NCBI GenBank assembly: GCA_021108215.1
Contig: JAIORK010000036.1
Coordinates: forward strand, 22,948 to 86,947
From: a bacterium
GTDB taxonomy: Bacteria > Oederibacteriota > JAAXVQ01 > JAUVAV01
DNA length: 64,000 nt
Direction: 5' to 3'
The notes beneath the pieces are model-generated. The model did not search any database. It saw only the letters and a list, made by a program, of their open reading frames with translations, and was not told the origin of the DNA. Positions 16,907-60,110 of this stretch are shown here, in pieces; position 1 is the first letter of the stretch; every line of letters starts with the position of its first letter. The position numbers and the translations under genes were made by a program.

Positions 16907-17246
16907 GTCAAACCCCCATCTTCGTGATATTGCCTTCCCAATAAAGTAATAACACAGGTTTTTAAAACAAACTATAAAAACAAGGAAAAAGTCACAAAAT
17001 CAAATCAGGTGACGGACCATTACGGTTCCAGCGCTTGTGCAGCCAGGCGTTTCATCTGCTTGACAATTGCGGCCAGACCATTGGCCCGGGAGAGAGAGGT
17101 TGGTGCTTAATCCAATTTGTCTATAAAGATGAAAAAAAGGCAAAATGCCATTTGACATATCTCCAAATAAAGCTTATGTTTCTTATAGATTTCAGCCGGA
17201 TAGGGTTGGGATCAGTTAGGTTCATTTTATAGGAGGAACGTATTTC

Positions 17247-17450
17247 ATGGTACAAGGTAAAGTAAAGTGGTTTAATGATGCAAAAGGATTCGGTTTCTTG
17301 GAGCGCGAAGGCGGCAGTGATGTATTTGTTCATTTCTCAGCTCTCAAAGGCGACGGATTCAAAAGTTTGGCTGAAGGTGAAGCAGTAGAATTTGATGTCG
17401 TTGACGGTCCCAAAGGCCCTCAGGCATCCAATGTTTCCAAACTTGGCTAA
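17247..17450 (+). CDS. cspA: Cold-shock protein (CspA family), second copy
   Basis: The 67-aa product has [12 protein letters not shown] and VFVHFSAL. An AGGAGG RBS is present. Confidence 0.9.
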
Positions 17451-17485
17451 GCAACCCATCCGACAACTCGTTGTATAGGTTTTAA

Positions 17486-17524
17486 TTAAAAACCCCCGTA
17501 CCTTTTGGTGCGGGGGTTTTTAAT
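17486..17524 (+). terminator. Rho-independent terminator of cspA copy 2
   Basis: The element is aaaaacccccgtacc-ttt-ggtgcgggggttttt. It marks the left edge of the AT-rich island. Confidence 0.8.
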
Positions 17525-17597
17525 TTGGGGTAGCGCTACCCTACTGCTCCCCATTAACAAAAGAAGAGTAGTATAAAAGCTCTTTATTTTCCTACTA

Positions 17598-18320
17598 CTA
17601 ATAGCACTCATAGTACGGTGGCTTTTTGGGTGTTGGATATATTTTAGCCGAATAGTGTATGTTTTTTATCTTGTCACGAAATTTGTTTTGCAAAATAATA
17701 TTATTTCTAATTGCTGAAATATACTTATCCAGCGCTATTACTAAATCAACCTTTAAGGCATTAATTGATATCGGCAACCAATATCCAGCATAGTTATTCA
17801 AATGCGTTATTTCTCCGGCAGAATGAACTTGCACTATTTGGAAGTGTTTAACATCAAGCCTTTTTTCAAATATTATTTTGCCATCATTATCTGCTATTTG
17901 GAAATTGTGGCTGTAACTATTTCGTTCACCGTCTTCATCAGAAAATACCAACCACTTTAATATCGCTTTTTTACTTTCGAGATCTATTAATAGATTTTGT
18001 GGATGAAATCTATGACACAATCCATGTCGATACATGTAATAAAACCATTTAACTTCCTGGTCTTTGTAAATACTTGTGTCAAAATAATTACGAATAAATC
18101 CTAACTCAACATCCTCACCATCTTTCCCGAAGGGTCTTTGACCATGAAGATATTCACTCAATTCCAGCACATAACTAAAAAACATCAATGGAATAGTAAA
18201 CTCTCCTATCCCTGCTTTTAGAAGAGCACCCATTTCTAAGAGGATCGAGTTTTTATAATCTTTATCCAAATATTCGATTATCTGGTCACTGCTAACATTT
18301 TTAAATAATTTCCAAGACAT
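17598..18320 (-). CDS. Hypothetical protein of 240 aa in the AT-rich island
   Basis: It sits downstream of and co-oriented with the 777-aa gene, with a 32-bp gap. It has coding periodicity and no recognised motif. Confidence 0.5.
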   Translation of the reverse strand: MSWKLFKNVSSDQIIEYLDKDYKNSILLEMGALLKAGIGEFTIPLMFFSYVLELSEYLHGQRPFGKDGEDVELGFIRNYFDTSIYKDQEVKWFYYMYRHGLCHRFHPQNLLIDLESKKAILKWLVFSDEDGERNSYSHNFQIADNDGKIIFEKRLDVKHFQIVQVHSAGEITHLNNYAGYWLPISINALKVDLVIALDKYISAIRNNIILQNKFRDKIKNIHYSAKIYPTPKKPPYYECY

Positions 18321-18352
18321 ACCTCATCTCCATTTTAGACCACTTATTGATT

Positions 18353-20686
18353 TTATTTAATCGGATGTTTAGAAAGAATTTGTCGTGCTAATTCTTCTCC
18401 GTCATTTGGGCCTGGAAATCCACCTCTTTCCCGTAATCGTTCTTCAAGTTGTTTTTGTCTAAGTAAAATATGTTTTTGTACATTTTTCCATTGTTCTTCT
18501 GTGAAAACCTTCGGTTTTGTTTTAATTTCTTCGTCAACCTTGTTTGCCATATGTGTATTGTTTTTTGCACGCATTACTAATTGAATAGCATAAAAATGTG
18601 CATATATATCACCAATTGCGTAATCATCAGGATTTTTAGAAATTTCGCAATATGATTCCAGGATTGAGCGTATATTTGAAATACATAAGAGTAATACATC
18701 TTGCCACCACTCTCGGGTATAAAATAAAAGGCCTATGTACACCATAGAATCACATGCAATATCAGTCCATTCTTTAAATATGCTCTTCTTTCTATCAAAA
18801 GCAACCCAGTAAAATGACAAAATCCACGTGAATTTATCAACTAATTCTTTCACATCATTTTGGTTAGATCGTAGTGGATTATCTAATATCTGACACACAA
18901 CTTTAGCAATATGCTTAATTAGCTCATTAATCTCCCAAATAAGAAAACTATCTCCAAACTCATTTTTTTCTGCAACATTGCGCAAGTGCCGTGCAATGAT
19001 GTCTGTCATGTCTATTAATTCGTAATATGGATTTGTCGCATCTCGTTCAGGATCTACTTTCGGAAATATAGTTGCAGCCATAGCGAATAAATTCCCGAGT
19101 GAAGTTTGTTCGACAAGACTATATGCCTTTGTAAACGGATGATTCATTGATAGTCTTCCTTGAAGAGTTTCACTAATTATTGCAAAGGGCGCTAAATTTC
19201 CAAGTTTTTGAAAAACTTGGCCAAGTACTTCTTTGAAGTAATAATCTTTATTCCGAAGCATATGGTCAAGGATGATAAAATACTGTTTAATAACTTCTTC
19301 TGCTAATACAGGATTGCGGTTAATATAGAAGTACTGAGCAATTTCTGATATTCCATTTATAACTGGCAAGTGAATGTCTGAGTCATCAACATCCTTCGGA
19401 GTACATTTAATAATTCCAGAAAGCATGCCGCTCGTCTGAAACGGCACCTCATCAAGCCCTTTTGTTTGGGCAATCCTCACGCATGACAACATGTAGTTAA
19501 TTGGTTTCATAGACAATGGTGCAGTGTTCGGCCGGTATTTTCTTGCTCCTAAATTTGCTGTGTGGATAGTAATTTTCTTGTATGCTTCAGAAACACTTAA
19601 AGCTGCGGATTCATCATTTTGTGATATAGCAATACGGCTAATTTCATTTAACATTTCATAGGAACAGCCTGTAACTGCTTCTACATCAGATTGGGAAGTT
19701 AACAGCAATGTATCTGGGCAGGGCAAAATTAGTAAATTTAGCTTTCTTGCAGATAAATAATACATAGTCAAATGAGCAATCGCATACACAGCCGATTTCG
19801 TTAATAGTTTCTCATTTCGAGAAATAGCTTTTACTGCGATCTCAGATAAATCATTAATCCAACTATTGATAGTTTGGGGATAGCCGAACACTTGAGGATA
19901 ATAAATCGTTTCTATATCCTCAATTACCACTCCCTGCTTTTTTTCTTCCGGGAGTAATTTATAATGAAGTCTTGCTGATCGATTAACTGTCTTTTTTATA
20001 CGATCAATTGTTCTCATTGCTTGCTTGAGAGCAAGATTTGTTGAATAAGTTGGATCTAACAGCTTGCATATATGACGATGATACAAGCGTAGCAGATCAA
20101 GACTAAATCCCAGAGTTAATATAGCAACAGCTAATTTCAAGTTTTCTGAAACTCCAGCGAATCCACCCGCAGAAAAAGCAAAGCACGCTATACACAATAT
20201 CGCAAGAGCTACAAACGATGCATTTGTAATTAAGTCTCTCCGATAAAGACGGACAATTGAAGATGACCAAGCTTCTGCTGCACGTTGTATTGGTATAATT
20301 GATAGGGTTAATACAAGTGCCAGAATTGTTCCGTACGTGGCACCAAGTTGAATGAGCATTTTATCTATTGATTGCGTTGTGTTTAATGCTGTTCGCAAAG
20401 GCGGATAACCCAGAATAAATGATGCTATTATAAGGCCAATAATACCTATCATAATCTTGCTTGTTTTCAAAAGCAACCCACGACTAAACGAAGTAATATA
20501 AAACCATAAACGAACAACTTTTATTGTCAAATACGTTTTTATTCGCGTTATTATAGTTTTCAATCCATCACGTAGCGACATAATCATTCGTTTGAAATAT
20601 TTCACTAGTTTTGGCCACCATAGTATTACGTTTGTTGACCATAAATTGCGAATTTTAAAGTATGATTTGTTTTTATTTTGGTTCAT
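18353..20686 (-). CDS. Hypothetical polytopic membrane protein of 777 aa in the AT-rich island
   Basis: The N-terminal ~230 aa contain about six predicted TM helices. The remaining ~540 aa form a helical cytoplasmic region. No recognised catalytic motif was found. Confidence 0.5.
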   Translation of the reverse strand: MNQNKNKSYFKIRNLWSTNVILWWPKLVKYFKRMIMSLRDGLKTIITRIKTYLTIKVVRLWFYITSFSRGLLLKTSKIMIGIIGLIIASFILGYPPLRTALNTTQSIDKMLIQLGATYGTILALVLTLSIIPIQRAAEAWSSSIVRLYRRDLITNASFVALAILCIACFAFSAGGFAGVSENLKLAVAILTLGFSLDLLRLYHRHICKLLDPTYSTNLALKQAMRTIDRIKKTVNRSARLHYKLLPEEKKQGVVIEDIETIYYPQVFGYPQTINSWINDLSEIAVKAISRNEKLLTKSAVYAIAHLTMYYLSARKLNLLILPCPDTLLLTSQSDVEAVTGCSYEMLNEISRIAISQNDESAALSVSEAYKKITIHTANLGARKYRPNTAPLSMKPINYMLSCVRIAQTKGLDEVPFQTSGMLSGIIKCTPKDVDDSDIHLPVINGISEIAQYFYINRNPVLAEEVIKQYFIILDHMLRNKDYYFKEVLGQVFQKLGNLAPFAIISETLQGRLSMNHPFTKAYSLVEQTSLGNLFAMAATIFPKVDPERDATNPYYELIDMTDIIARHLRNVAEKNEFGDSFLIWEINELIKHIAKVVCQILDNPLRSNQNDVKELVDKFTWILSFYWVAFDRKKSIFKEWTDIACDSMVYIGLLFYTREWWQDVLLLCISNIRSILESYCEISKNPDDYAIGDIYAHFYAIQLVMRAKNNTHMANKVDEEIKTKPKVFTEEQWKNVQKHILLRQKQLEERLRERGGFPGPNDGEELARQILSKHPIK

Positions 20687-20788
20687 ATAATCCTCTGAAT
20701 CTATTTTCCTGTCAGCGAAATATAGGGCATTATCGTCAACTTTTAGCGGAATAGCAATTCAAAATATATTACACCGTAAATAGCACCG

Positions 20789-20983
20789 TTATTTTATACA
20801 TGACTGTTTCTTTATGGCTTTTACTACCAAATCACTGATTTCTTGCATTATCTCTGGATCGTATTGGATAAAATCAAGTCTACCGCTGCTTTTATCTTGG
20901 TTTTCTTTTACTACTTCTCGATCCATACGTTCAGTTATGATTTGGAAGACCTTTATATCACCCCGTGCCGCTTGTTTGATCAT
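20789..20983 (-). CDS. Small hypothetical ORF (64 aa)
   Basis: The open frame extends upstream without an alternative start. There is no RBS, so this call is weak. Confidence 0.2.
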   Translation of the reverse strand: MIKQAARGDIKVFQIITERMDREVVKENQDKSSGRLDFIQYDPEIMQEISDLVVKAIKKQSCIK

Positions 20984-21121
20984 GGCGCCTGCAACCTTTT
21001 CCTGGCTGATACTGCCAGTCTCAAACTGTTCCTTGATAACAACATTCCAGTGACTGACTCCACACTTGGCACCGCAGGGATTTCCGCTTTGTCCCTTTCT
21101 TCTAATTAATTCTTTATAAAC

Positions 21122-21152
21122 AAAAAAGAGCCTCCCTTTCGGGAGGCTCTTA
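21122..21152 (-). terminator. Terminator of the XRE regulator gene
   Basis: On the minus strand gagcctccc-gaaa-gggaggctc is followed by a T6 run. Confidence 0.6.
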
Positions 21153-21359
21153 AAGATTCATTAGGTCCTTTAATTTAATCCCCAGCCCATGAGCTATCTT
21201 AGCTAGAGTGGTGAATTGCGGGTCCACAAGACCTTTTTCGATCTTACTTAGGTTGCCTTTGGACATGCCGTTTTCATAAGCTAGGTGTTCCAGGGTAATC
21301 CCCTTCTCCTTCCTTAGCTTATGTATCCTCATGCCCAGTTTTTCGGTTAATTGGCTCAT
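21150..21359 (-). CDS. XRE-family (Cro/C1-type) HTH transcriptional regulator
   Basis: The 69-aa product has the HTH motif (ITLEHLAYENGMSKGNLSKIEKG). Confidence 0.75.
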   Translation of the reverse strand: MSQLTEKLGMRIHKLRKEKGITLEHLAYENGMSKGNLSKIEKGLVDPQFTTLAKIAHGLGIKLKDLMNL

Positions 21360-21647
21360 AATGGAGTTGATTTTACAATATTTTAGGTTTATAGTAGTTT
21401 CTTATAAGAAACTTTTGGAGGTTAAATATGCAAATCTTAAAATCTACAATTCCTTATGTCATTGAATTTTCACCGGATGACATCAATTATTTACATTTGG
21501 CCTGTCATTATTATAAAGATTTACTGAAAAATAATAAGGACATGAAAAAAATCAAACGACGGGATAGACTTAAGCATCTAAACCAAATGATAACGCTCAT
21601 TGATTTGATGATGTGAGGATTATCAAAAAAATATTTTTATATTTGTT

Positions 21648-22214
21648 CTATTTACTCTGCATTGCTAATAGCTCCGCCTTTTTTCCCTCCATCGGGGCTG
21701 AAATATGTATTCGTGATTTTTCTTTTTTACGCTTCTGGCCTCCCTGGTTTAATTTCGAGAGGTTTTCAGATATAAATCTATCAATATTCTCTTTAGCTTC
21801 CACATGAAAGCGAGCCACTCCGTTTTTAATATCCACATCTTTACCAGCCATGTGTATCAATTGATCAAGATACATTTTTACTTTAAATGCATGATATTTA
21901 ATCAAATCAACAATTTTTACCGAAGGCTGGCGAAAACCAATTTCCAAGTGAAGCCCAAGGACGCTTGCATAATTCAATAGATCACCAACAGCGATATCTT
22001 TGTCATAAGAGGATTCGATTTTGGATATTTTCCCCTGGGAACAACCAACTTTTTTCGCCAGTTTGGTCTGCGTGAGTTGGTGTTTGCAACGCAACATGAG
22101 CAGGAATTTGGAAATCATCCGGTTTTCGATTTCATACGCTACGCTTTTCTTGAATTCCTCATCCGTTGAAAGCCCTTCCATCATTTTCATAACATTTTCA
22201 TATTTTTTCGCCAT
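21648..22214 (-). CDS. HTH-XRE domain protein, putative HigA-like antitoxin
   Basis: It has a central HTH (LTQTKLAKKVGCSQGKISKIES). Its start overlaps the stop of the upstream RelE-like gene in an ATGA arrangement. Confidence 0.55.
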   Translation of the reverse strand: MAKKYENVMKMMEGLSTDEEFKKSVAYEIENRMISKFLLMLRCKHQLTQTKLAKKVGCSQGKISKIESSYDKDIAVGDLLNYASVLGLHLEIGFRQPSVKIVDLIKYHAFKVKMYLDQLIHMAGKDVDIKNGVARFHVEAKENIDRFISENLSKLNQGGQKRKKEKSRIHISAPMEGKKAELLAMQSK

Positions 22215-22585
22215 TATTGTCCCCCCTGTTTCATACCCTTTACCTTTTTCTTGTATTCCTCAATATCCCTACTCTGGGACCTCTTATCCCCTATTCCTAA
22301 AAGCACAACCCTCTTTTCCTTTACGTCGGAATAGATATAAAGCCGTGTTTCCTGGAGCTTCTTTCTTATTCCTCCACATCTTTGGTCAATCGCTTTGATG
22401 CCCATGGGTTCCGGATAGACAAACCCCACCTGGACCAACGAAGGCGACCCACACTCACACAAAGTCCTAAAATACGTGTCCAGGTTGTTCAAAACGCACT
22501 TTAATTCATCTTTGTGCTTTTTTTGATAGTGCTTGTGGTCCCTCTCGAAGGATTGCGTCGGTTGGAGATGCCATGGTTCCATCAT
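22214..22585 (-). CDS. RelE/ParE-superfamily toxin (HigB-like gene order)
   Basis: The C-terminal signature ETRLYIYSDVKEKRVVLLGIGDKRSQSRDIEEY parallels RelE (RLVYRVDDE..V.VISVGKRERSEVY). The gene is translationally coupled to the downstream HTH gene. Confidence 0.6.
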   Translation of the reverse strand: MMEPWHLQPTQSFERDHKHYQKKHKDELKCVLNNLDTYFRTLCECGSPSLVQVGFVYPEPMGIKAIDQRCGGIRKKLQETRLYIYSDVKEKRVVLLGIGDKRSQSRDIEEYKKKVKGMKQGGQ

Positions 22586-23034
22586 CGGCTCAATCCGTAG
22601 GTATTGGTATAATTATTCCATATTGGAATATTATCTCTTTTGGTTATATTTGTCAACGCTTCCATAAAACGTTTCCCTCGAATAAGTATCTTGCGTACCC
22701 TTTATTCGTTAGACAATTTTTTCGAGAGTTTCATGCATTTATTACTATTTTTTTTATTCTTTTTACGGATTGATATTGAGGTTGTATTAAGGACTCCTAC
22801 AAGGAATATCATGGTTTTTGGATAAGATGGCTGAAATGAGATAAGGGAAATTGGCTGCTGTGCTCACAGAGTTCTCTTCGCATGAGATTCCCCGTTTGGT
22901 ATCTAAGAAAAACAGAAAAAACCAATCTTCACTACTCGGGAATCGGTTACTACGGTCGCAACATCATGTTGCTCCCTGCGTAACCCCGCCTCGACAGCTA
23001 GCCAAAGACATCTCGTTTTTCATCCCAAAAAACT

Positions 23035-47725: not shown

Positions 47726-48004
47726 TTATCCTTCAACCTTATGGGTCAGGACAACAATCTTGATCGCGCTTTTCCGTTCCCCGTCCAATTCGAGATGCAT
47801 GAATTCCGGACGAAAGGTCAATTCAATTTTATCATCCGTAAGGTAAGACCGGGAAATGGTAATCGCTTTTACTGCCTGATTCACACTTTGAGGACCCATC
47901 GCAACAACTTCAATATCCTTGCCTTCGCGGATATTATTAGCAATCGCACCAGCTACAGTGGCAGGGTTGCTTTTCCCGGCAACTTTGAGAGTGAGCATTG
48001 GCAT
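47726..48004 (-). CDS. spoVS: SpoVS family protein
   Basis: The 92-aa product (MPMLTLKVAGKSNPATVAGAIANNIREGK...) aligns with SpoVS over its full length. An AGGAG RBS is present. Confidence 0.8.
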   Translation of the reverse strand: MPMLTLKVAGKSNPATVAGAIANNIREGKDIEVVAMGPQSVNQAVKAITISRSYLTDDKIELTFRPEFMHLELDGERKSAIKIVVLTHKVEG

Positions 48005-48194: not shown

Positions 48195-48740
48195 TTACTT
48201 TTCTATTTGTACTATATATGGTGGGTCAAGTTTTAAGAGTGCATATGTTTTACGAAGAGTTTTTTCTCCTCCAGATCGAATCAGATATTCACCTCGCGTC
48301 GGGATTGTGTCCTTTCTCCAAGATCCATTTTTATAAAGCCATTCCACCTTGATTCCTTTCAGTTCTTGCAAAACAGGATGTATCACCTCAACAACTTTAA
48401 ACGCTGTTGCCCGTTTTTTTTTGCCAAAAGGGTGAGGGATTTCTACTGTTGATGGGATTGATTGCCATTCCTGATCATCAACACTCTTGTATTGAGTTGC
48501 CTTTGCTTGGACACCTCCGGGATCTTTTGCTTCCGGACTATCTGAACAGAAAGCATAGATGGGTTGGGGTTGTGGATTCGCATTAATGTAGTTAATCCAC
48601 TGTCTAATAAATTCTTCTTTTCTATCTTGAAACGACCATAGCGTCCATTCGTTTGCTTCAATTTCCTTTTCTTTACGCCGAAGAATGTCCTCACGGGTTT
48701 CTCCAGCGTGAACTCCTAAACAGTGCCAAAATCCTAGCAT
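48195..48740 (-). CDS. Hypothetical protein (181 aa), third gene of the Panacea/RelE operon
   Basis: It overlaps the RelE-like gene stop by 7 nt. No recognised motif was found. Confidence 0.4.
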   Translation of the reverse strand: MLGFWHCLGVHAGETREDILRRKEKEIEANEWTLWSFQDRKEEFIRQWINYINANPQPQPIYAFCSDSPEAKDPGGVQAKATQYKSVDDQEWQSIPSTVEIPHPFGKKKRATAFKVVEVIHPVLQELKGIKVEWLYKNGSWRKDTIPTRGEYLIRSGGEKTLRKTYALLKLDPPYIVQIEK

Positions 48741-49099
48741 ATTTTCCCAATCCTCCCCCGATCCTCTTTCTCCTTATCCCCTTTAAAATAAATTTCTATC
48801 AACGCCACTTTATTTTCCGCCGCATAATACGCATAGATCACCCTGATCCCGGAATTCGCGCCCCTGCCTTTCAGAGCCTTGCAGGCGAATTTGCGGGCTT
48901 TGTAGATTTTCGGATTTTCAATGCCTAAATCAGGAATGGATACGATGCCCTGGTTATCCTTATCCAGCTTATGATAGAGCTGAAGCTGAACTTTGATAAA
49001 TACATCCAAATCATCTTCCGGGGTTTTGAATCGTTTCCTCAGCTTTTTTAAATCCTTCTCAAATTCCGGCCAGCGTCTGACCTCACTGAATATTTTCAT
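48734..49099 (-). CDS. RelE/ParE-family type II toxin
   Basis: The C-terminal signature is KALKGRGANSGIRVIYAYYAAENKVALIEIYFKGDKEKED. It overlaps the upstream antitoxin gene by 17 nt. Confidence 0.65.
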   Translation of the reverse strand: MKIFSEVRRWPEFEKDLKKLRKRFKTPEDDLDVFIKVQLQLYHKLDKDNQGIVSIPDLGIENPKIYKARKFACKALKGRGANSGIRVIYAYYAAENKVALIEIYFKGDKEKEDRGRIGKIC

Positions 49100-49901
49100 C
49101 GCTTCGTCTCACTGAATAGGGTGCTGTCCGGTAAAACACGGATTCATATTCAATATTTTTACCCTCCTCGGAGGTCATCCAGGGAACATCAGCATGTGAA
49201 TAATCTTCCATTTGCCTGGCATTCTTATCCGACAGCCGGGCCAAAACATCGTCAATTACTTCCTTTTCATTCGCTGAAAGAACACTTAAATCCGGTTCCT
49301 TTAGCGGCAAATATTTTGTTTGCGGATAGTCAAAGTATTGGCTTTTCACTTTCTCGATTTCATTATTCTTGATCATGTTATCCACAATCACTTTAAATTC
49401 CCGCGGTGTAGGGCCGTGATGATTCTTAATATACGTGGCCCCGATAAGCTGTTCCTCAAACCTTTCATAATAATCGAAGTCCATAAAATACAGGAGTTTA
49501 TAGATAACGCTTTCCCCGATATTGGGTTTTGATCCCACTTTGCCCAGTATATACAATAAAATCTGCTTGAATTTTTTCAGATTCTTCTGCGGCACGTTTA
49601 TGCGAATACCGGGTTTGGTCTCTTTTTCTTCTTTAGTCATTTCCAAAATCACCTGCGGCTCTTTGGAAATATCCATAAGGCTCTCCACCGAGACCCCGAA
49701 TATTTGGGAAATTTTCTTCAACTCTTTTATTGAGACAGCTCTGGTGCCGTTTTCCATTTGAGAAATCGTGGGACGCACCACTTTCAGTAAGTTCGCCAAT
49801 GCCTGCTGACTCATTTCCTGAGATTCCCTCAACAATTTGACATGTTTGCCTATTTTTTTATCAAATTCGCCCACGGTGAACACCCCCTTTTCTATACTCA
49901 C
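49083..49901 (-). CDS. HTH-XRE + Panacea (DUF4065, SocA-like) domain antitoxin
   Basis: The N-terminal HTH (MSQQALANLLKVVRPTISQMENG) is followed by the Panacea hallmark (SVIYKLLYFMDFDYYERFEEQLIGATYIKNHHGP). Confidence 0.75.
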   Translation of the reverse strand: MSIEKGVFTVGEFDKKIGKHVKLLRESQEMSQQALANLLKVVRPTISQMENGTRAVSIKELKKISQIFGVSVESLMDISKEPQVILEMTKEEKETKPGIRINVPQKNLKKFKQILLYILGKVGSKPNIGESVIYKLLYFMDFDYYERFEEQLIGATYIKNHHGPTPREFKVIVDNMIKNNEIEKVKSQYFDYPQTKYLPLKEPDLSVLSANEKEVIDDVLARLSDKNARQMEDYSHADVPWMTSEEGKNIEYESVFYRTAPYSVRRSDENIQ

Positions 49902-50063
49902 TCTACGTCATGTAATTATTCCTGTCAACGCAAAGTTAGCATTTATTACTTTTGTCCCTGGGCTATTTATTAGAGGATGGCTTCATCTTGGTCATGCTAT
50001 CTGGTCAATCCTGAAAAAGTCAAAAATAAAAAAAAGTGGCTGGCACCACTTTCATTTTCTTCA

Positions 50064-50158
50064 AGACCCTCGGCATACTACTTTTTCACAGTGCATCCTG
50101 TTTGAGCTTCCCGAAGGGGGCGAGTTATGCACCAGAAAAAGTAGTATGCCGAGGGTCT
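50064..50158. repeat. Long inverted-repeat element with 24-bp perfect arms, a 47-bp spacer and nested internal hairpins
   Basis: The arms agaccctcggcatactactttttc and gaaaaagtagtatgccgagggtct are exact reverse complements. The spacer contains gtgcat...atgcac and ccc-gaa-ggg sub-stems. It lies between the rsmI stop and the Panacea-operon promoter region. Confidence 0.5.
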
Positions 50159-54852: not shown

Positions 54853-55176
54853 TTAGTCTACCAACATTTCATTGATCACCGCTTTAATTTGCAGACGGGT
54901 TTTGGCACTTAGCTTTCCAATCTTTTTAACCAATCGGCGTTTGTCAACGGTCCGGATTTGATCAAGAACAACCCATCCTTTTTTATTCTGAAATGTCAGA
55001 CCAACTCTGGTGGGATATTTCTTTGATTGTGTGGTCATTGGCGCAATAATAACAGTTGAAATATACCGATTCATTTCATCAGGAGAAATGACAACACAGG
55101 GTCTGGTTTTCTTGATCTCATGACCCATTGCAGGATCCAGACAAATAAGATAAATATCATATTGAGTGATCACCAC
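54853..55176 (-). CDS. mazF: MazF/PemK-family endoribonuclease toxin
   Basis: The 107-aa product reads YDIYLICLDPAMGHEIKKTRPCVVIS... Confidence 0.8.
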   Translation of the reverse strand: MVITQYDIYLICLDPAMGHEIKKTRPCVVISPDEMNRYISTVIIAPMTTQSKKYPTRVGLTFQNKKGWVVLDQIRTVDKRRLVKKIGKLSAKTRLQIKAVINEMLVD

Positions 55177-55418
55177 TTCCAGTCACCTTTATCCAGATCA
55201 AGATAATCATCAATAAGCAGGGTATCTTGTTTATTATTGTTCATTGCCAAAAACTTTGCATCCCAGTCTTTCCGAATATCTTTTTTGACTGGTTTTAAAA
55301 CGATACGGTCACTGGTTATTTCGGCATCAACTTGCTCGCCGATATGACATTGCCGCAAAATAGCTTTTGGCAATCGAACACCTCTGGAATTTCCAATTTG
55401 TATAATATCAATCCGCAT
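55170..55418 (-). CDS. mazE: MazE/AbrB-family antitoxin
   Basis: The SpoVT/AbrB swapped-hairpin region is MRIDIIQIGNSRGVRLPKAIL. A GGGAGG RBS precedes the internal ATG, and the gene overlaps the mazF start by 7 nt. Confidence 0.7.
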   Translation of the reverse strand: MRIDIIQIGNSRGVRLPKAILRQCHIGEQVDAEITSDRIVLKPVKKDIRKDWDAKFLAMNNNKQDTLLIDDYLDLDKGDWKW

Positions 55419-55548
55419 TGTATTCACCTCCCTTACTTCAAATGTAATTATATTGTAATTACATTTGTTTGTCAAGCATTCATGCCTATCATCGCTATAG
55501 CGCCGGCACGAAGGACGAAAATGCAAGTCGGCTATATGCATATCTGTC

Positions 55549-58500
55549 TCACCGACTGTATTTTTGCAAAATATTGCGAAACTCCATAAATCCTTTGCTT
55601 AATAAATAATTACAAAACTCTTCTGCTCTCTTTTTACTCGCTTGATGATTCTTACTGAAAACACTCTCGAGTATCGCCATAATCTCATCCTGATGAAACG
55701 CAATGAAATTTATTTCATTTTCCGCTAAAGCTACTAATATTTTAACAACTTCAGTTGGATAAGTTTCAACCATTGTTTTAAGTTGTTCCATAATTGGTGG
55801 AATTGCTTCGATATGCTTGGTTTTTTCCAGCACAAATAATAATTGATCAATCGCCCACTGCGAGTCACACTTCCCGGATCCAAACCAATGCCCAAACGCC
55901 GACATTTCATTCAAAAAGATTTCCGGACTCGTTGATAAAAAAAGCATTTTGCATCGCTTTTCCCACATTTTTTTTATGCGCTGCATTTCCATAGCTGATA
56001 AATTTTCCGTGCTCCCTAATATATCAAAACCGATCATTTGCATTGCTGTCCCTCTTAATTCATCCGGCGCTCTTTTCCAAAAATTTATAAAAATATCCGA
56101 TTCTAATTCCAGTTTTCCGCGAATATAAAACAACATCAGATGCCAAGCCAATCGCTTATCTTTTTCTTCCGCAACATCCTCAATTTCGTTGACTGCCCGA
56201 GCATACTCTGTTTTCAATATTTCAAAAACATTATCATAGGGCTGACACAACAAAATATATGCCTTCCAGGCCACAGCCCAATATTCACGTTCCCTCTCAT
56301 CTTCCGGGAATATCCGGGTCCGTGCTTTGGCTGACCATTCCGGTTTTACTTTTGCCAGCCAAGGAAACCAACGCCCGTATACCGAATGAATAGCCAAGCT
56401 GGAATCTTGCGTATGATCAAGATGTTTATCCAAAATCTTTTCAATTTCAGGCATCATTTCTTCTCTTTTATCCTCTTCAAAATCATCTGTTTGACTCTGG
56501 ATTTTATTTCTGTAAATCCACCACATATAATTCATAACTGCATGCATGGCTTTTCCGCGGGTAGAATTGATTGAACGGGAATATGGTTCCATGTCATGTG
56601 TGTTTTCATATTCACTTGTCGGATCCGAATCTTCGGTTAATGGCTCTAAAACAGTCCAAACGCTTTTCCGTAGCTTTAAGGGGATTAAATTTTTACGCAT
56701 ACCTTCAACCAGGCAGTCTGCTATCTCCCCCCTGGCTTGGCCCCTATCGTCCGCATTTTCCTCTTTTATTTCGCGTGACTGTCGCATCCACTGACCAAGT
56801 TCCAGCATAGACGCCCACTCCAGCTTTGTATTGGTATTACGGATCACTTCTTTAAATCCAAATAATATCCAAAATAAATAATTTGAAGTATATGGACTGG
56901 TAAGCCGGGTAAATTGCCGTGCCTCGACAGAATACAATTCAGGCCTGGCTTGCACCAAAGACGACAGCATTTGCGCCAATCCTTCCGCAGAAACGTCTCT
57001 GACTTCTGCTGATGGTTTCCAAGCGTTTAAAAATTCAACCAGCTTCTCAATTGGCAAGGCGGCTAACTCGTCCAGGGTTTTTGGGCTGGATTCCCATCCC
57101 CCCTCCACTACAACTCCGGTGTTTCTCTTTTTCTCCGCTACACCATATTCTTGAACTAATTTCGTATAATAAGGCTGCCATGCCGCTGGCAAAGCTTGGC
57201 CAAACCTGGCCAGACAATCCCTTTGCCAGTGCCGGCGAACTTGCTCAGCCTCATCTTTCCCGGGTTTTCTGTACCTCTTGTCAAAATCCGGCCCGTCTTC
57301 AACCCATTTTAAGATCATCGCCTGTTTATCCTGCGGTAAAAATCCAAAACCCTTTTCCAGCAGCGGTCCATATTCATCCCAGCATTCACCACTTGCAAAT
57401 AACGCCTTGTCTGATAAATATTTATCTGTCAGTTCCGGCGCTGACCCGGGACAAAGGCTTAATAAATGAAGCGCTATCCGCTTGAAAAGCATCCATGGTT
57501 TCTCGCTTGAAATTTTTACCAAAACATCAATACCTATAGTCGCATCCAATTGCGTGCCTGTCTTTAATATCAAATCGATTAGAATATTTCTAAGCTCGTA
57601 CATCTCATATTGCATTGGTTTTTCAATCTCCGGGCGCCAAAAAAAAGAATAATCATTATTATTTTCCGGTTCCTCATCCTTGGCTTGTGAATATCTCAAT
57701 GCCATATCCAACATCTCGCATAGCCATCGGAACACAGGAACACCGGTTGACTTTGCAAGTTCCGGAATAATCTTCTCCGTTATCTCTTTATACCGGGAAA
57801 TTTCTACTCTTGTTTTCGGATGCGGGCCATCCCAATAGCGCTCTGCGTTTTCTTTGCTCTTCTGCCAGCGAGGATCCGGGAGTATTACCAGCATTTTTTT
57901 CGCCAGCCCGAAAGCTTCCTCCGCTTTTCCTGCCAAAGTATAATACAGGACCAGTTCAGCCAAATGCTTGTCAAGCGGATAAAACAAATATTCATTTACC
58001 ATCCACTTGGCTGCTTTATCTATTAAACTCATAGCTATATCAATCGGCAGATTCAGCGTTGCTTTAACCAAACCATCAATAACATAGACATTTTGTGTGT
58101 CAGGGATGATTAAAATAATATCCGCAACTGCTTGGGGCGCTATTTTGGCCATCCGCACTAAATAACCGGATTCCGCCCAAAATGGAAACGTTATGGAACC
58201 ATCTTCATTTTGTAGCAGCTCCGGGGGACTTCGAAAAACTGATGTATCTTTTAGCCGTGCAAGCCATTTTGGATTAGAGCATCTTTCAAAAAAGTATTTG
58301 CGTATAAAATAGACATCAGGAATTTCTTTGTAGAGTTTTTCCGCATCCTTAGAAGTCGGATTATCTTTTTCCAGTAATTTATCCAGTTCGGCAATCAATC
58401 CCGAGCTATGATTGCGCAACGCATGTAAAATCCGCTTCAAATAAACATCCATGTCCGACAAGTTTTTTTCCAGATCACTTGGAGTCATTCGCGGAGCATC

Positions 58501-59391
58501 CAATCTATCTCGGTGCGCTATTTTTTGCAGGGTTCCAGGCTTTACAAACCACTGCAATTCATCTTCTTCTCTCTCTCCTGTTAATTCTTTTAACAACCTC
58601 TCTATTTCTTTTTTATGCGCATCATGTTCACCTTGTTTTTTTTCTATATCCAGATAAAGTCTCAACACATCCCTGATACTGCTTTCAATTTCTCTAAGCA
58701 AATGCCCCAGCAAATGCGAGCGAGTCTTTAATTCCCCTCCATTTCGTCTTATCCAGCAAATATCCCAATAAAACGCTTCTGCTCCAGGCCCGGCCAGTTC
58801 TTTTAAGTCCTCATAGACTTGTCTTTGGATGCCATCTAATTGAAAATTTTGCTGCGGTCCTAGGGGCATCTCTGCTGCTTTTTTGTCCACCTGCTCAGGC
58901 AATTTTCCCAGCTCTAATATCTTTTCCAATTTCGCAAGCGTCGCAATTGTGATATTTTTTTTCCCTTTTTCAAGAGCGGAAATATCCGGCTGCTTTAAAC
59001 CTGTGCGGCGGGCCAAATCTGCTTGTGTCCAACCCTTCTGTTCTCTGGCCTGTTTTATTTTTCTTCCAATTACCTGATTCTCTTCAGCCGGCGCACCTTT
59101 AATCCGCTTGTTTTTACCTTTTTTTTGTTCAAGCAGTTCATAAACACGCTCCCACTTGGCATAATAATCCGGCGCCTCACTGGTGCGCTTCCATTCCCGC
59201 CGGATTTTCGGCCACACTTCAGTAAATTGCTCTTTTGTGATGAAGGTAAAAATGTCTTTGGGGCGATCATTGCGTGTTAAAACACGGATAATTTTTTTCG
59301 GAAAATCAGGATGTTCAGGAATCTTAAGGATTCGCTCCGTTTCCTTCAAGGCATCTTCCGGCAAATCCCAAAAATAATCTCCGATCTTCAT
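55549..59391 (-). CDS. Large (1280 aa) protein with an embedded XRE-type HTH (residues ~105-165) and a ~1100-aa alpha-helical repeat region of unknown function
   Basis: The HTH is GRKIKQAREQKGWTQADLARRTGLKQPDISALEKGKKNITIATLAKL. The remainder is helical with no recognised catalytic motif. Its ATG overlaps the stop of the upstream NTase gene (ATGA). Confidence 0.5.
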   Translation of the reverse strand: MKIGDYFWDLPEDALKETERILKIPEHPDFPKKIIRVLTRNDRPKDIFTFITKEQFTEVWPKIRREWKRTSEAPDYYAKWERVYELLEQKKGKNKRIKGAPAEENQVIGRKIKQAREQKGWTQADLARRTGLKQPDISALEKGKKNITIATLAKLEKILELGKLPEQVDKKAAEMPLGPQQNFQLDGIQRQVYEDLKELAGPGAEAFYWDICWIRRNGGELKTRSHLLGHLLREIESSIRDVLRLYLDIEKKQGEHDAHKKEIERLLKELTGEREEDELQWFVKPGTLQKIAHRDRLDAPRMTPSDLEKNLSDMDVYLKRILHALRNHSSGLIAELDKLLEKDNPTSKDAEKLYKEIPDVYFIRKYFFERCSNPKWLARLKDTSVFRSPPELLQNEDGSITFPFWAESGYLVRMAKIAPQAVADIILIIPDTQNVYVIDGLVKATLNLPIDIAMSLIDKAAKWMVNEYLFYPLDKHLAELVLYYTLAGKAEEAFGLAKKMLVILPDPRWQKSKENAERYWDGPHPKTRVEISRYKEITEKIIPELAKSTGVPVFRWLCEMLDMALRYSQAKDEEPENNNDYSFFWRPEIEKPMQYEMYELRNILIDLILKTGTQLDATIGIDVLVKISSEKPWMLFKRIALHLLSLCPGSAPELTDKYLSDKALFASGECWDEYGPLLEKGFGFLPQDKQAMILKWVEDGPDFDKRYRKPGKDEAEQVRRHWQRDCLARFGQALPAAWQPYYTKLVQEYGVAEKKRNTGVVVEGGWESSPKTLDELAALPIEKLVEFLNAWKPSAEVRDVSAEGLAQMLSSLVQARPELYSVEARQFTRLTSPYTSNYLFWILFGFKEVIRNTNTKLEWASMLELGQWMRQSREIKEENADDRGQARGEIADCLVEGMRKNLIPLKLRKSVWTVLEPLTEDSDPTSEYENTHDMEPYSRSINSTRGKAMHAVMNYMWWIYRNKIQSQTDDFEEDKREEMMPEIEKILDKHLDHTQDSSLAIHSVYGRWFPWLAKVKPEWSAKARTRIFPEDEREREYWAVAWKAYILLCQPYDNVFEILKTEYARAVNEIEDVAEEKDKRLAWHLMLFYIRGKLELESDIFINFWKRAPDELRGTAMQMIGFDILGSTENLSAMEMQRIKKMWEKRCKMLFLSTSPEIFLNEMSAFGHWFGSGKCDSQWAIDQLLFVLEKTKHIEAIPPIMEQLKTMVETYPTEVVKILVALAENEINFIAFHQDEIMAILESVFSKNHQASKKRAEEFCNYLLSKGFMEFRNILQKYSR

Positions 59392-60110
59392 GAGAGTTCA
59401 CCCTCCAAAAACGCGCTCAATTCATCATCTAAATGACGGATAATCATTTTTGATTTGAGTTTGCGGTCATAAATGGCATCAGCATAATCCAAATAATCTT
59501 GCTCAAACTTTTGGGTTGAAAATCTCTTGCGCCACCCTATCATCGTTCGCTGATAGGTGCGTGGAATCGTTTTTAAAAATGAATGTAATGGCTCGATCTT
59601 TTTGGACAAATAATAGAGATCAATAACATCACGCGGGACATTTCGACCAACAGCTTGCGGTTCTCCATGTCCATTCTTCTCAGGTACAATTCCGGTAATC
59701 GCGATTATTTTTTGAAAATAAATCCGATTGACATCATACACCGGTATACCCTTAATTTTCTTAATAAAATTTTCCCTGGTTAGCTGCGGAAGGACATCTT
59801 CTACGAAATCAAGTTTCAATGATTCGGAAGTTTTCTCTATAGGGATGGTATAAAAATGAACATTCATTTTCCCGGGATGAGTAATTTCATCCTTGAATTC
59901 CGGTTTGTATCCACCTTTTTTTATTTCTTCAAGAATCGAAACAATTTCCCCATAATTAAACTCAAGTGAAAAGAAATCCAGATCGCGTGAAAAACGATGT
60001 TGAAGATAAAAAATCTCCAATGCCGTCCCGCCGGCCAAAGCAAAATTCCCGGGATTTTTGGAAAATAAGTTCAAAATTTCCAGATGTAATTTTCGCAGTC
60101 TTTTATTCAC
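59388..60110 (-). CDS. Nucleotidyltransferase of the AbiEii/AbiGii toxin family (DUF1814-like)
   Basis: The N-terminal NTase-fold motif is ALAGGTALEIFYLQHRFSRDLDFF, i.e. GG..L....HR.S.DLD. It is 240 aa. Confidence 0.5.
   Translation of the reverse strand: MNKRLRKLHLEILNLFSKNPGNFALAGGTALEIFYLQHRFSRDLDFFSLEFNYGEIVSILEEIKKGGYKPEFKDEITHPGKMNVHFYTIPIEKTSESLKLDFVEDVLPQLTRENFIKKIKGIPVYDVNRIYFQKIIAITGIVPEKNGHGEPQAVGRNVPRDVIDLYYLSKKIEPLHSFLKTIPRTYQRTMIGWRKRFSTQKFEQDYLDYADAIYDRKLKSKMIIRHLDDELSAFLEGELS

Follow-up and report, generated by a model that had tools for sequence, protein, structure and literature searches.

A predicted PanAT-type toxin-antitoxin gene pair and the passenger gene adjoining it on an Oederibacteriota contig

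Three overlapping genes of the window (meaning the whole 64,000-nucleotide stretch of DNA that was analysed) encode a protein combining an HTH with a Panacea domain, a small putative toxin and a 181-aa protein, which raises the question as to which of the two downstream products is the cognate toxin of the Panacea antitoxin (PanA), and whether the third gene belongs to the system. In the first-pass annotation the toxin of the pair was regarded as doubtful, and the 181-aa protein was put forward as a second toxin, an accessory factor or the protein with which the Panacea domain really pairs.

Gene layout and the antitoxin

The list of open reading frames (ORFs) places three overlapping ORFs on the minus strand at 49901..49083, 49099..48734 and 48740..48195, with sizes of 272 aa (GTG start), 121 aa (ATG) and 181 aa (ATG), where the 272-aa and 121-aa ORFs overlap by 17 nt and the 121-aa and 181-aa ORFs by 7 nt; the coordinates, strand and both overlaps of the layout as first described were thus all reproduced (Table 1). 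None of the three ORFs is fortuitous, and all are taken as genuine genes, since each has many conserved homologues and since they are annotated by NCBI (MCD4813669/8/7; locus tags K8S19_08255-08265). They lie in the interval between rsmI and spoVS. The overlaps also support the physical co-transcription that had been proposed for the three genes, whose GC content is 0.41-0.43 as against 0.46-0.51 in the flanks.

Table 1 Features of the PanAT locus and the adjoining gene (positions within the window).
Feature	Position	Strand	Remarks
Sigma-70-type promoter-like site, TTGACA-17 nt-TAGAGT	49900..49928	(-)	10/12 matches; upstream of panA; predicted function
panA, HTH-Panacea antitoxin gene, 263 aa	49083..49874	(-)	Start GTG 49874; longest ORF to GTG 49901 (272 aa)
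XRE-type HTH domain	49683..49838	(-)	PF01381; residues 22-73 (272-aa numbering)
Panacea (DUF4065/SocA_Panacea) domain	49179..49502	(-)	PF13274; residues 134-241 (272-aa numbering)
panT, 121-aa RelE/HigB2-like toxin gene (predicted)	48734..49099	(-)	Overlaps panA by 17 nt; fold and profile alignment
Putative recombination junction, PanAT module/181-aa gene	48734..48748	(-)	Contains the end of the toxin gene (GKIC*) and the start ATG of the next gene
181-aa passenger gene, unannotated family	48195..48740	(-)	Overlaps panT by 7 nt

The XRE HTH and the Panacea/DUF4065 domain that had been proposed for the 272-aa protein were both recovered above threshold in a Pfam search, being HTH_3 (PF01381; E 7.9e-13, 48.7 bits for a cutoff of 23) and SocA_Panacea (PF13274; E 5.1e-19, 69.7 bits for a cutoff of 25.7, model positions 2-112 of 113). 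The stretch YKLLYFMDFDYYE, earlier pointed out as the Panacea hallmark, is present in PanA and most of its positions are at least 95% conserved among 70 orthologues, in which the G163-P164-T165-P166 motif is invariant (70/70) and 75 positions besides this motif are at least 95% conserved. The signature of the Panacea domain is a "GPV" motif reported to be critical for neutralisation (PMC8832971); it is kept here, with the difference that Val is replaced by Thr. An N-terminal HTH is optional in PanAs, of which 343 with an HTH were described by Kurata et al. (PMC8832971).

This domain content stands, while the length of 272 aa probably does not. The start at GTG 49901 is doubtful because it lies inside the -10 box of TTGACA-17-TAGAGT (49928..49900), the best promoter match in the scanned region, and the most likely start of panA is the in-frame GTG 49874, which is preceded by an AAGGGGG Shine-Dalgarno sequence and yields a protein of 263 aa, this being the length of the recorded product (MCD4813669.1, "DUF4065 domain-containing protein"). 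In the locus of the closest orthologue (L007) the ATG start of panA is likewise preceded by a Shine-Dalgarno sequence, and a TTGACA with an A/T-rich -10 region is found at the equivalent position. The promoter at approximately 49928-49900 would drive panA, and the N-terminal XRE HTH of PanA most likely represses its own promoter; a search for an operator near the promoter gave no convincing palindrome, and an Rfam scan of the region gave noise matches only, on a long hairpin.

The 121-aa protein and its pairing with PanA

The assignment of the 121-aa protein to the RelE/ParE family failed in one respect and held in another. The HMM libraries did not support it: no match at E <=1 was obtained in Pfam or NCBIfam, whose models include RelE, HigB, YoeB, YafQ, Gp49, ParE and others, PADLOC gave none either, and PHROGs gave a single one at E 8e-5, to phrog_5869, which has no assigned function. 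Fold and profile alignment did support it. When the AF2 model of the protein (pLDDT 85, pTM 0.81) was compared with the PDB by Foldseek, the top matches, about 30 in number, were all RelE, HigB2, YoeB, YafQ or HigB1 (probabilities of 0.9-1.0, target-normalised TM-scores of 0.6-0.7), the best being RelE 1wmi (E 1.8e-4), followed by HigB2, YoeB, RelE and YafQ. A profile search of the 121-aa family against the PDB gave HigB-2 at E 0.02, and the alignment of the family with V. cholerae HigB2 by hhalign had an E-value of 1.2e-4 with a probability of only 55%, i.e. moderate confidence, and an identity of approximately 31% over 67 columns. This alignment places R69, R86, Y104 and K106 on R51, R64, Y82 and K84 of HigB2, which are its experimentally defined catalytic residues (PMC5416850), with all four catalytic positions conserved. 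Within the 121-aa family, R86 and K106 are invariant and the conservation of Y104 is 90% or higher; a Lys/Gly-rich beta2-beta3 loop is conserved also. The 121-aa protein is thereby supported as a predicted RelE/ParE-superfamily toxin by its fold and its profile alignment, and not by family HMMs.

With HigBA2 of V. cholerae, the toxin of which is a RelE-family mRNase, the locus has in common the toxin fold, the KGKG-rich beta2-beta3 loop, the R/R/Y/K set and an XRE HTH on the antitoxin; it differs in that HigB2 precedes HigA2 whereas the antitoxin gene comes first here, and in that HigA2 neutralises through a disordered N-terminal segment and not through a Panacea domain. From fold and alignment, the 121-aa toxin most likely cleaves ribosomal A-site mRNA by means of R69, R86, Y104 and K106. 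That it is instead a ParE-type gyrase poison, or another superfamily member that is not a ribosome-dependent mRNase, is clearly unlikely: RelE and ParE have one common fold, the fold search includes ParE2 among its lower-ranking matches (rank 45) and ParE is among the CDD/HHpred labels that Kurata et al. give to related PanT clusters (PMC8832971), but RelE, HigB2, YoeB and YafQ come out best in both fold and profile comparison, and both the loop and all four equivalents of the HigB2 catalytic residues are conserved.

The pairing of this protein with PanA was found to be general. Among related loci, all those holding upstream DNA (79/79, from many phyla) have an HTH-PanA gene directly upstream of the homologue of the 121-aa gene, which identifies the 121-aa protein as the predicted cognate toxin of PanA, its toxicity and neutralisation being presumed, and which removes the doubt that had been raised as to the partner of PanA. 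The commonest overlap between panA and the toxin gene is 17 nt (25/69 loci), the same as in the window. This agrees with the definition of a conserved PanA arrangement, in which a putative toxin gene is found within 100 nt in two or more species. None of these loci has synteny with the flanking genes of the window, and the pair therefore moves as a unit. The locus is best read as an ordinary two-gene toxin-antitoxin (TA) module of the PanAT type and not a new three-part system.

Systems of this kind are known. In Kurata et al. 2022 (PNAS), PanAs are predicted to pair with HigB-2/RelE/ParE-like toxins, in the order antitoxin then toxin and with overlaps that include -17 (PMC8832971), and the portion of their Dataset S1 concerned lists toxin clusters T14, T28, T58, T59 and T60 with HigB-2, RelE, YoeB or ParE matches in HHpred or CDD (PMC8832971). 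The likeness to PanAT systems (PMC8832971) comprises PF13274, the GP(V/T) motif, the HTH, the antitoxin-first order and a small overlap, -17 included; the difference is that the RelE-like rows in that portion of Dataset S1 are PanAs without an N-terminal domain ("noNTD"), untested in that study, whereas the clade analysed here has an HTH (PMC8832971). As regards its TA part, the locus is one more member of the predicted class of PanA with a RelE/HigB2-like toxin, and little in it is new. The 121-aa family itself is very large: at 90% identity its members, from many uncultured phyla and some archaea, form more than 3,300 clusters. As neither Pfam nor NCBIfam offers a model for it, annotation pipelines label its members "hypothetical"; an HMM built from the family alignment would cure this gap.

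For pairs tested by Kurata et al., complexes of PanA with the toxin and protease-independent neutralisation were reported (PMC8832971). From this published behaviour of the family, the Panacea domain at the C-terminus of PanA would bind and neutralise the translationally coupled downstream product. We consider it very improbable that PanA instead acts as an adaptor for proteolysis and hands the toxin over to ClpXP in the manner of SocA, the antitoxin of the type VI TA system SocAB of Caulobacter. The Panacea-domain antitoxin is the likeness between the two systems, PF13274 being present in SocA also (PMC8832971), but PanA falls below the SocA equivalog model NF047745 (13.1 bits for a cutoff of 190) and is not a SocA orthologue, the 121-aa toxin is unrelated to SocB, and the PanAs that were tested neutralise without ClpXP or Lon and form toxin complexes (PMC8832971); direct binding is probable here.

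The third gene and its junction with the toxin gene

Whether the 181-aa protein co-occurs with Panacea proteins elsewhere was checked from both sides. Its family is absent from all 80 orthologous PanAT loci (64 of them with at least 700 nt of downstream sequence) as well as from one viral locus, no third gene recurs after PanAT in the 64 loci, and in 94 further loci where the 181-aa family is present, neither the toxin nor an adjacent PanA occurs. The only other contig with the three-gene layout (L167) comes from the same strain, with sequencing errors at the contig end, and was rejected as independent evidence. The 181-aa gene is therefore a lineage-specific passenger in an arrangement seen only in this organism, and its product is not the true counterpart of the Panacea domain that it had been suggested to be; likewise, a three-component system was not borne out, as the gene does not recur with the PanAT pair in independent genomes.

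Elsewhere the neighbours of the family are mixed, many of them housekeeping genes (men operon, IGPS-KsgA, LysR, MiaA), and its members usually lie behind unrelated genes; clustering of the flanking ORFs of 86 loci revealed no partner common to the whole family. Its homologues stand alone among housekeeping genes, which makes it very unlikely that the 181-aa protein acts as a second toxin. In other loci, members directly follow toxin genes (Zeta, AbiEii and PemK/MazF) or nuclease-like genes (DUF4238, DUF6602, PD-(D/E)XK, TnsA-like).

A true tripartite system, with the 181-aa protein serving as another toxin, as an accessory enzyme or as a factor that modulates PanA or the toxin, can draw on the 7-nt overlap, which implies co-transcription and possible translational coupling, on the low GC content common to the three genes, on the toxin and nuclease-like neighbours just named, which could hint at a link to toxins, and on the sporadic "accessory" third genes reported in PanAT loci (PMC8832971). 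It is nevertheless quite improbable in view of the 80 PanAT and 94 family loci, of homologues that often stand alone among housekeeping genes, unlike a toxin needing an antidote, and of a junction that resembles an accidental truncating fusion; moreover, Kurata et al. see such third genes as probably having no general role in toxicity or neutralisation (PMC8832971). Established arrangements in which a co-oriented third gene follows a TA pair (paaR-paaA-parE, mazEF-mazG and the PanAT "accessory" genes) are alike in layout, but their third gene recurs across genomes, whereas here it occurs in one organism and has a truncating junction. A more speculative reading, to which we attach little probability, is that the family is a structurally new, promoterless "rider" that settles behind genes, disproportionately those for toxins and nucleases, and serves in some way the toxin or defence modules, and that in the window it is a recently captured PanAT modulator; that function might be, for example, the sensing or binding of a modified nucleotide or nucleic acid through conserved Trp/His/Cys residues.

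Colinearity between the window and L007 extends as far as GATCGGGGGAGGATTG, beyond which the two sequences part. At this point the C-terminus of the 121-aa protein has Cys in place of a near-invariant Tyr (Y121C) and a tail 2-4 residues shorter than that of the family, and the 181-aa protein is without the N-terminal residues of its own family, including a conserved Phe. The native C-terminus of the toxin family, as in L007, ends in RIAHYYSNE. As read from the sequence, the junction looks like a recombination scar that clipped the toxin's last codons and the N-terminus of the 181-aa protein. We consider it fairly probable, and the best explanation of the locus, that a horizontally acquired two-gene module of the PanAT type and an unrelated 181-aa gene were joined by recombination. 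Accordingly worded as a sequence of events, positions 48734-49928 (minus strand) would constitute a horizontally acquired type II TA module, and recombination would have attached the 181-aa gene to the toxin gene at its 3' end with loss of the toxin's last and the 181-aa gene's first codons, the latter gene now presumably being transcribed from the TA promoter, with its ATG located 11 nt after an SD-like GGAGG within the toxin coding sequence. Such an altered C-terminus might weaken the toxin, and the module may have ceased to function as a TA system. If so formed, the window is a natural example of a sporadic TA "third gene" arising by truncating fusion and not by functional recruitment, and it counsels caution as to guilt-by-association predictions made from such third genes.

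As a separate observation, L007 has a DUF4238 gene after PanAT, and another locus (L006) has one before its 181-aa homologue. The ancestral PanAT-DUF4238-181 arrangement that this brought to mind is unsupported, the two DUF4238 proteins being only 25% identical over 138 residues.

The family of the 181-aa protein

The 181-aa family is small (some 400 members, in approximately 333 clusters at 50% identity) and unannotated, and the protein of the window gave no match in Pfam, NCBIfam, PADLOC or PHROGs. Its ORF is intact over the full length, and all 17 residues that are invariant in a 117-sequence alignment are kept; among the 60 columns with a conservation of 90% or more it deviates at 10, for a family median of 1 and a maximum of 5, five of the 10 deviations being conservative. 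Its identity to other members of the family does not exceed 49%, with the exception of the same-strain copy. This divergence and the clipped N-terminus could indicate a decaying remnant without function in this genome, which we regard as unlikely given the intact ORF, the retention of every invariant residue, the conservative half of the deviations and the confident AF2 model (pLDDT 92.9).

Foldseek comparison of this model with the PDB returned only weak YTH matches and no structural neighbour, and BFVD returned nothing; profile searches of the family against PDB sequences gave nothing significant, the best match being a Fic protein at E 0.29. The secondary-structure order and Trp pattern of the protein are superficially similar to those of YTH domains, from which the idea of a YTH/PUA-like reader of modified bases arose. 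This candidate was rejected, the probability by hhalign against a YTH alignment being 0.2% (that alignment comprised YTHDC1 and YTHDF sequences, the latter verified with PDB chains or derived from them). The RAMA domain (PF18755) was rejected also, as 6 of 117 family members had sub-threshold matches (best E 0.022), the protein of the window had none, and MPND/RAMA structures were absent among the fold matches of the model. Ten longer proteins of the family were scanned for domain fusions, and no Pfam domain was present in any extension.

Our best guess, held with low confidence, is that the 181-aa protein may be a soluble nucleic-acid- or nucleotide-binding protein or an enzyme of the accessory genome, and not a toxin. 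The family is "dark" and well conserved, and its confident predicted structure may make it a worthwhile subject for structural or biochemical work in its own right, although none of the present results ties its function to Panacea. In five loci, a zinc-ribbon protein of approximately 285 aa, without a Pfam match, is encoded downstream of the 181-aa homologue.

Gene content of the locus and the PanA antitoxin

The locus is a routine PanAT module, in which a Panacea-domain antitoxin (PanA) is followed by a RelE/HigB2-like toxin (PanT), plus a lineage-specific passenger gene. The ORF calls reproduced the three overlapping minus-strand ORFs of the first-pass annotation, all co-oriented and with overlaps of 17 nt (genes 1 and 2) and 7 nt (genes 2 and 3). 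All three are real genes, since each is represented by an NCBI record on a 189-kb MAG contig (MCD4813669, MCD4813668 and MCD4813667 for genes 1, 2 and 3, respectively) and by numerous conserved homologues in database searches. Their GC content of 0.41-0.43 is below that of the rsmI-like, spoVS and ftsH-like genes on either side (0.46-0.51) and marks the three genes as a foreign island of ~2 kb within a run of housekeeping genes.

Features of the panA-panT island and of the gene directly downstream
Feature	Position	Strand	Description
panA (gene 1) ORF, longest form	49901..49083	minus	272 aa, ORF call
panT (gene 2) ORF	49099..48734	minus	121 aa, ORF call
gene 3 ORF	48740..48195	minus	181 aa, ORF call
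SpoVS-family gene	47726-48004	minus	PF04232, E 2.5e-29; directly downstream of island

The Panacea assignment of gene 1, for which an HMM check had been proposed, was borne out by above-threshold Pfam matches to SocA_Panacea (PF13274, E 5e-19) and also to HTH_3 (E 8e-13); orthology to SocA itself was rejected, the NCBIfam equivalog giving 13 bits, below its cutoff of 190. The true start is probably not the 272-aa start originally assigned but GTG 49874 (263 aa), nine codons downstream, because the best promoter match (TTGACA-17-TAGAGT, 49928..49900) has GTG 49901 within its -10 hexamer, because GTG 49874 is preceded by AAGGGGG with the same spacing as found upstream of the ATG in the orthologue at L007 (the closest PanAT relative, from an FCPU426 bacterium), and because the PanA on record at NCBI is a 263-aa product. 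The motif G163-P164-T165-P166, invariant in an alignment of 70 PanA orthologues, is the counterpart of the 'GPV' signature reported by Kurata et al. 2022 as critical for neutralisation (PMC8832971). At three loci (L020, L050 and L064) the toxin is preceded by a PanA ORF of just ~180-190 aa that is devoid of an HTH domain, so that some lineages have lost the HTH or can dispense with it.

The 121-aa protein as the predicted cognate toxin of PanA

The first-pass annotation had found the cognate toxin of the Panacea protein not to be evident, and had considered the 181-aa protein as its possible actual partner. At least 590 proteins related to the 121-aa protein were identified in a one-genome-per-species scan, from which the 80 best loci were retained. 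Within this set a PanA orthologue, in most cases carrying an HTH, is located directly upstream and on the same strand in all 79 loci with upstream DNA, while a relative of the 181-aa protein is present in 0 of 80; therefore, there is a clear bioinformatic answer, the predicted cognate toxin of PanA being the 121-aa protein. An overlap of 17 nt, as found in the window, is the commonest PanA/toxin overlap (25 of 69 loci). The retained loci span many phyla (FCPU426, Zixibacteria, Cloacimonadota, Planctomycetota, Omnitrophota, Aminicenantes, Desulfobacterota and Clostridia, as well as a few archaea), and none of them shares flanking genes with the window, so that the pair moves as a unit; a viral contig also carries the pair without a third gene. 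The pairing represents a class already predicted in published work: entries in Dataset S1 of Kurata et al. include predicted PanT clusters with HHpred/CDD hits to HigB-2, RelE, YoeB or ParE, in antitoxin-then-toxin order and with overlaps that include -17, all of these pairs being predicted only (PMC8832971). The window pair has the same gene order and the same -17 overlap, and N-terminal HTH domains were reported for 343 PanAs in that study (PMC8832971).

No Pfam, NCBIfam or PADLOC model matched the 121-aa protein, and the earlier RelE/ParE 'family assignment' therefore reflects a motif pattern with no testable match behind it, although the idea was right when judged by fold and profile. An AF2 model (pLDDT 85, 35-sequence alignment) had an archaeal RelE as its best PDB match (E 1.8e-4), the other best matches being V. 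cholerae HigB2, T. thermophilus RelE, YoeB, M. tuberculosis RelE, YafQ and E. coli RelE. A profile search with the toxin family retrieved HigB-2 chains at E 0.02, and hhalign of the family against the HigB2 sequence (verified as identical to 5ja9_C) gave E 1.2e-4 over 67 columns, in which R69, R86, Y104 and K106 of the toxin align with R51, R64, Y82 and K84 of HigB2, residues whose replacement by Ala lowers activity 170- to 3000-fold (PMC5416850). Of these toxin residues, Y104 is conserved in at least 90% of the family and both R86 and K106 in all members, and a Lys/Gly-rich beta2-beta3 loop is common to the family and HigB2. Based on these fold matches, the HigB2 alignment with its catalytic residues and the shared loop, we infer that the product of gene 2 is a RelE/HigB2-type mRNase acting in a ribosome-dependent manner. 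The family retains interest in being large (>3,300 clusters at 90% identity, and at least 590 matches in one-genome-per-species contigs) without any curated model; its members are almost always annotated as 'hypothetical protein', with RelE named in a few JGI records.

The 181-aa protein as a passenger

The three-component system previously proposed is unsupported, considering that the 181-aa family is absent from the 80 PanAT loci and that no third gene recurs in the 64 loci for which 700 nt or more of downstream sequence is present; gene 3 is a lineage-specific passenger gene. When compared to L007, whose toxin is 81% identical, the window is colinear through …GATCGGGGGAGGATTG and divergent beyond. 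The window toxin ends in …GRIGKIC* as compared to …RIxxxYxx in the family, thus missing a near-invariant Tyr plus two to four residues, and the 181-aa protein starts with MLGFWH… where its relatives are 5-12 residues longer and include a conserved Phe, its ATG being placed 11 nt downstream of a GGAGG within the toxin coding sequence. Such a junction resembles a truncating fusion that arose by accident. Within its family the window copy is an outlier, with deviations in 10 of the 60 highly conserved columns (median 1, maximum 5), and retains every invariant residue of the 117-sequence alignment. The three-gene layout is found in one further contig only (L167), which was rejected as independent evidence because it derives from the same strain, being 100% identical over ~675 nt before low-coverage errors begin.

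The 181-aa family is small (~333 representatives at 50% identity among 1.84 billion proteins; 415 clusters at 90%), has no name in any source and matched nothing in four HMM libraries. Across 94 loci of this family (86 fetched, 8 from contig look-ups) neither a member of the 121-aa family nearby nor an adjoining Panacea gene was found, so the co-occurrence with Panacea proteins that was to be looked for elsewhere did not materialise. One SocA_Panacea gene, located at L169 (10263-10639), was judged an unrelated coincidence; it is encoded on the other strand, and 4.6 kb containing housekeeping genes separate it from the 181-aa homologue. In most cases the 181-aa member closely follows a gene on the same strand (48 co-oriented versus 7 opposite, by ORF calls), the identity of which varies by locus. 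Neighbours include housekeeping genes (IGPS, YceG, CobA, MscL, LysR, methyltransferase, a men-operon insertion) and mobile or defence-type genes (integrase, transposase, Zeta toxin, AbiEii, PemK, DUF4238, DUF6602, DUF3800, PD-(D/E)XK, TnsA-like, Mrr, HNH). Because the family lives alone among housekeeping genes, the protein is unlikely to be a toxin requiring an antidote.

At L093, L131, L132 and others, the directly upstream, co-oriented gene encodes, depending on the locus, a homologue of an AbiEii, PemK/MazF or Zeta toxin or a nuclease-like protein (PD-(D/E)XK/NucC-like, TnsA-like, DUF6602), these counts being too small to establish enrichment. In five metagenome loci (L115, L123, L153, L159 and L162) a ~285-aa protein carrying a zinc-ribbon at its N-terminus (CxxC…CxxC) and lacking any Pfam match is encoded directly downstream, at 26-29 nt in four of the five, and may be a subclade-specific partner. 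A DUF4238 gene lies 45 nt after the toxin gene at L007 (4421-5305) and another 17 nt before the 181-aa homologue at L006 (824-1753); a shared ancestral PanAT/DUF4238/181-aa arrangement is unsupported, the two being 25% identical over 138 residues.

The model of the 181-aa protein (117-sequence alignment; pLDDT 92.9, pTM 0.89) has the order β-α-β-α followed by six strands. Foldseek returned nothing significant from the PDB and nothing from BFVD; the best PDB matches were YTH domains (E 0.11, probability ≤0.23, TM ~0.22-0.26), a reading rejected by profile-profile comparison (probability 0.2%), while a RAMA reading, prompted by sub-threshold hits in 6 of 117 members, gained no support from the fold search. 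Conserved polar residues (H6, H11, E14, R22, K23, E26, T33, S36, R40, C65, D73, H103, R149 and E151), together with several Trp that are invariant, point to a putative ligand-binding or catalytic site. The interest of the family lies in its being a conserved 'dark' family with a confidently predicted yet unmatched structure.

Other features of the window

A hairpin at 50063-50158 (minus-strand RNA), unique within the window, has a stem of ~33 bp, with a 23-nt arm GACCCTCGGCATACTACTTTTTC that has an exact reverse-complement match, with the rsmI-like stop codon (50185) to one side of the hairpin and a canonical terminator (50053-50032 plus T-run) to the other. The 171-nt stretch has an MFE of -77 kcal/mol (z -9.2), and no Rfam family matched other than noise miRNA hits. 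A promoter-like site (TTGAAA-17-TATACT with an upstream TG) is present at 48115-48087, near the SpoVS-family gene. Two more low-GC stretches (17000-23000 and 55000-60000; 0.33-0.42 versus a window average of 0.46) may be other acquired islands, and a minus-strand ORF at 55549-59391 has a weak HTH match (E 4e-3).
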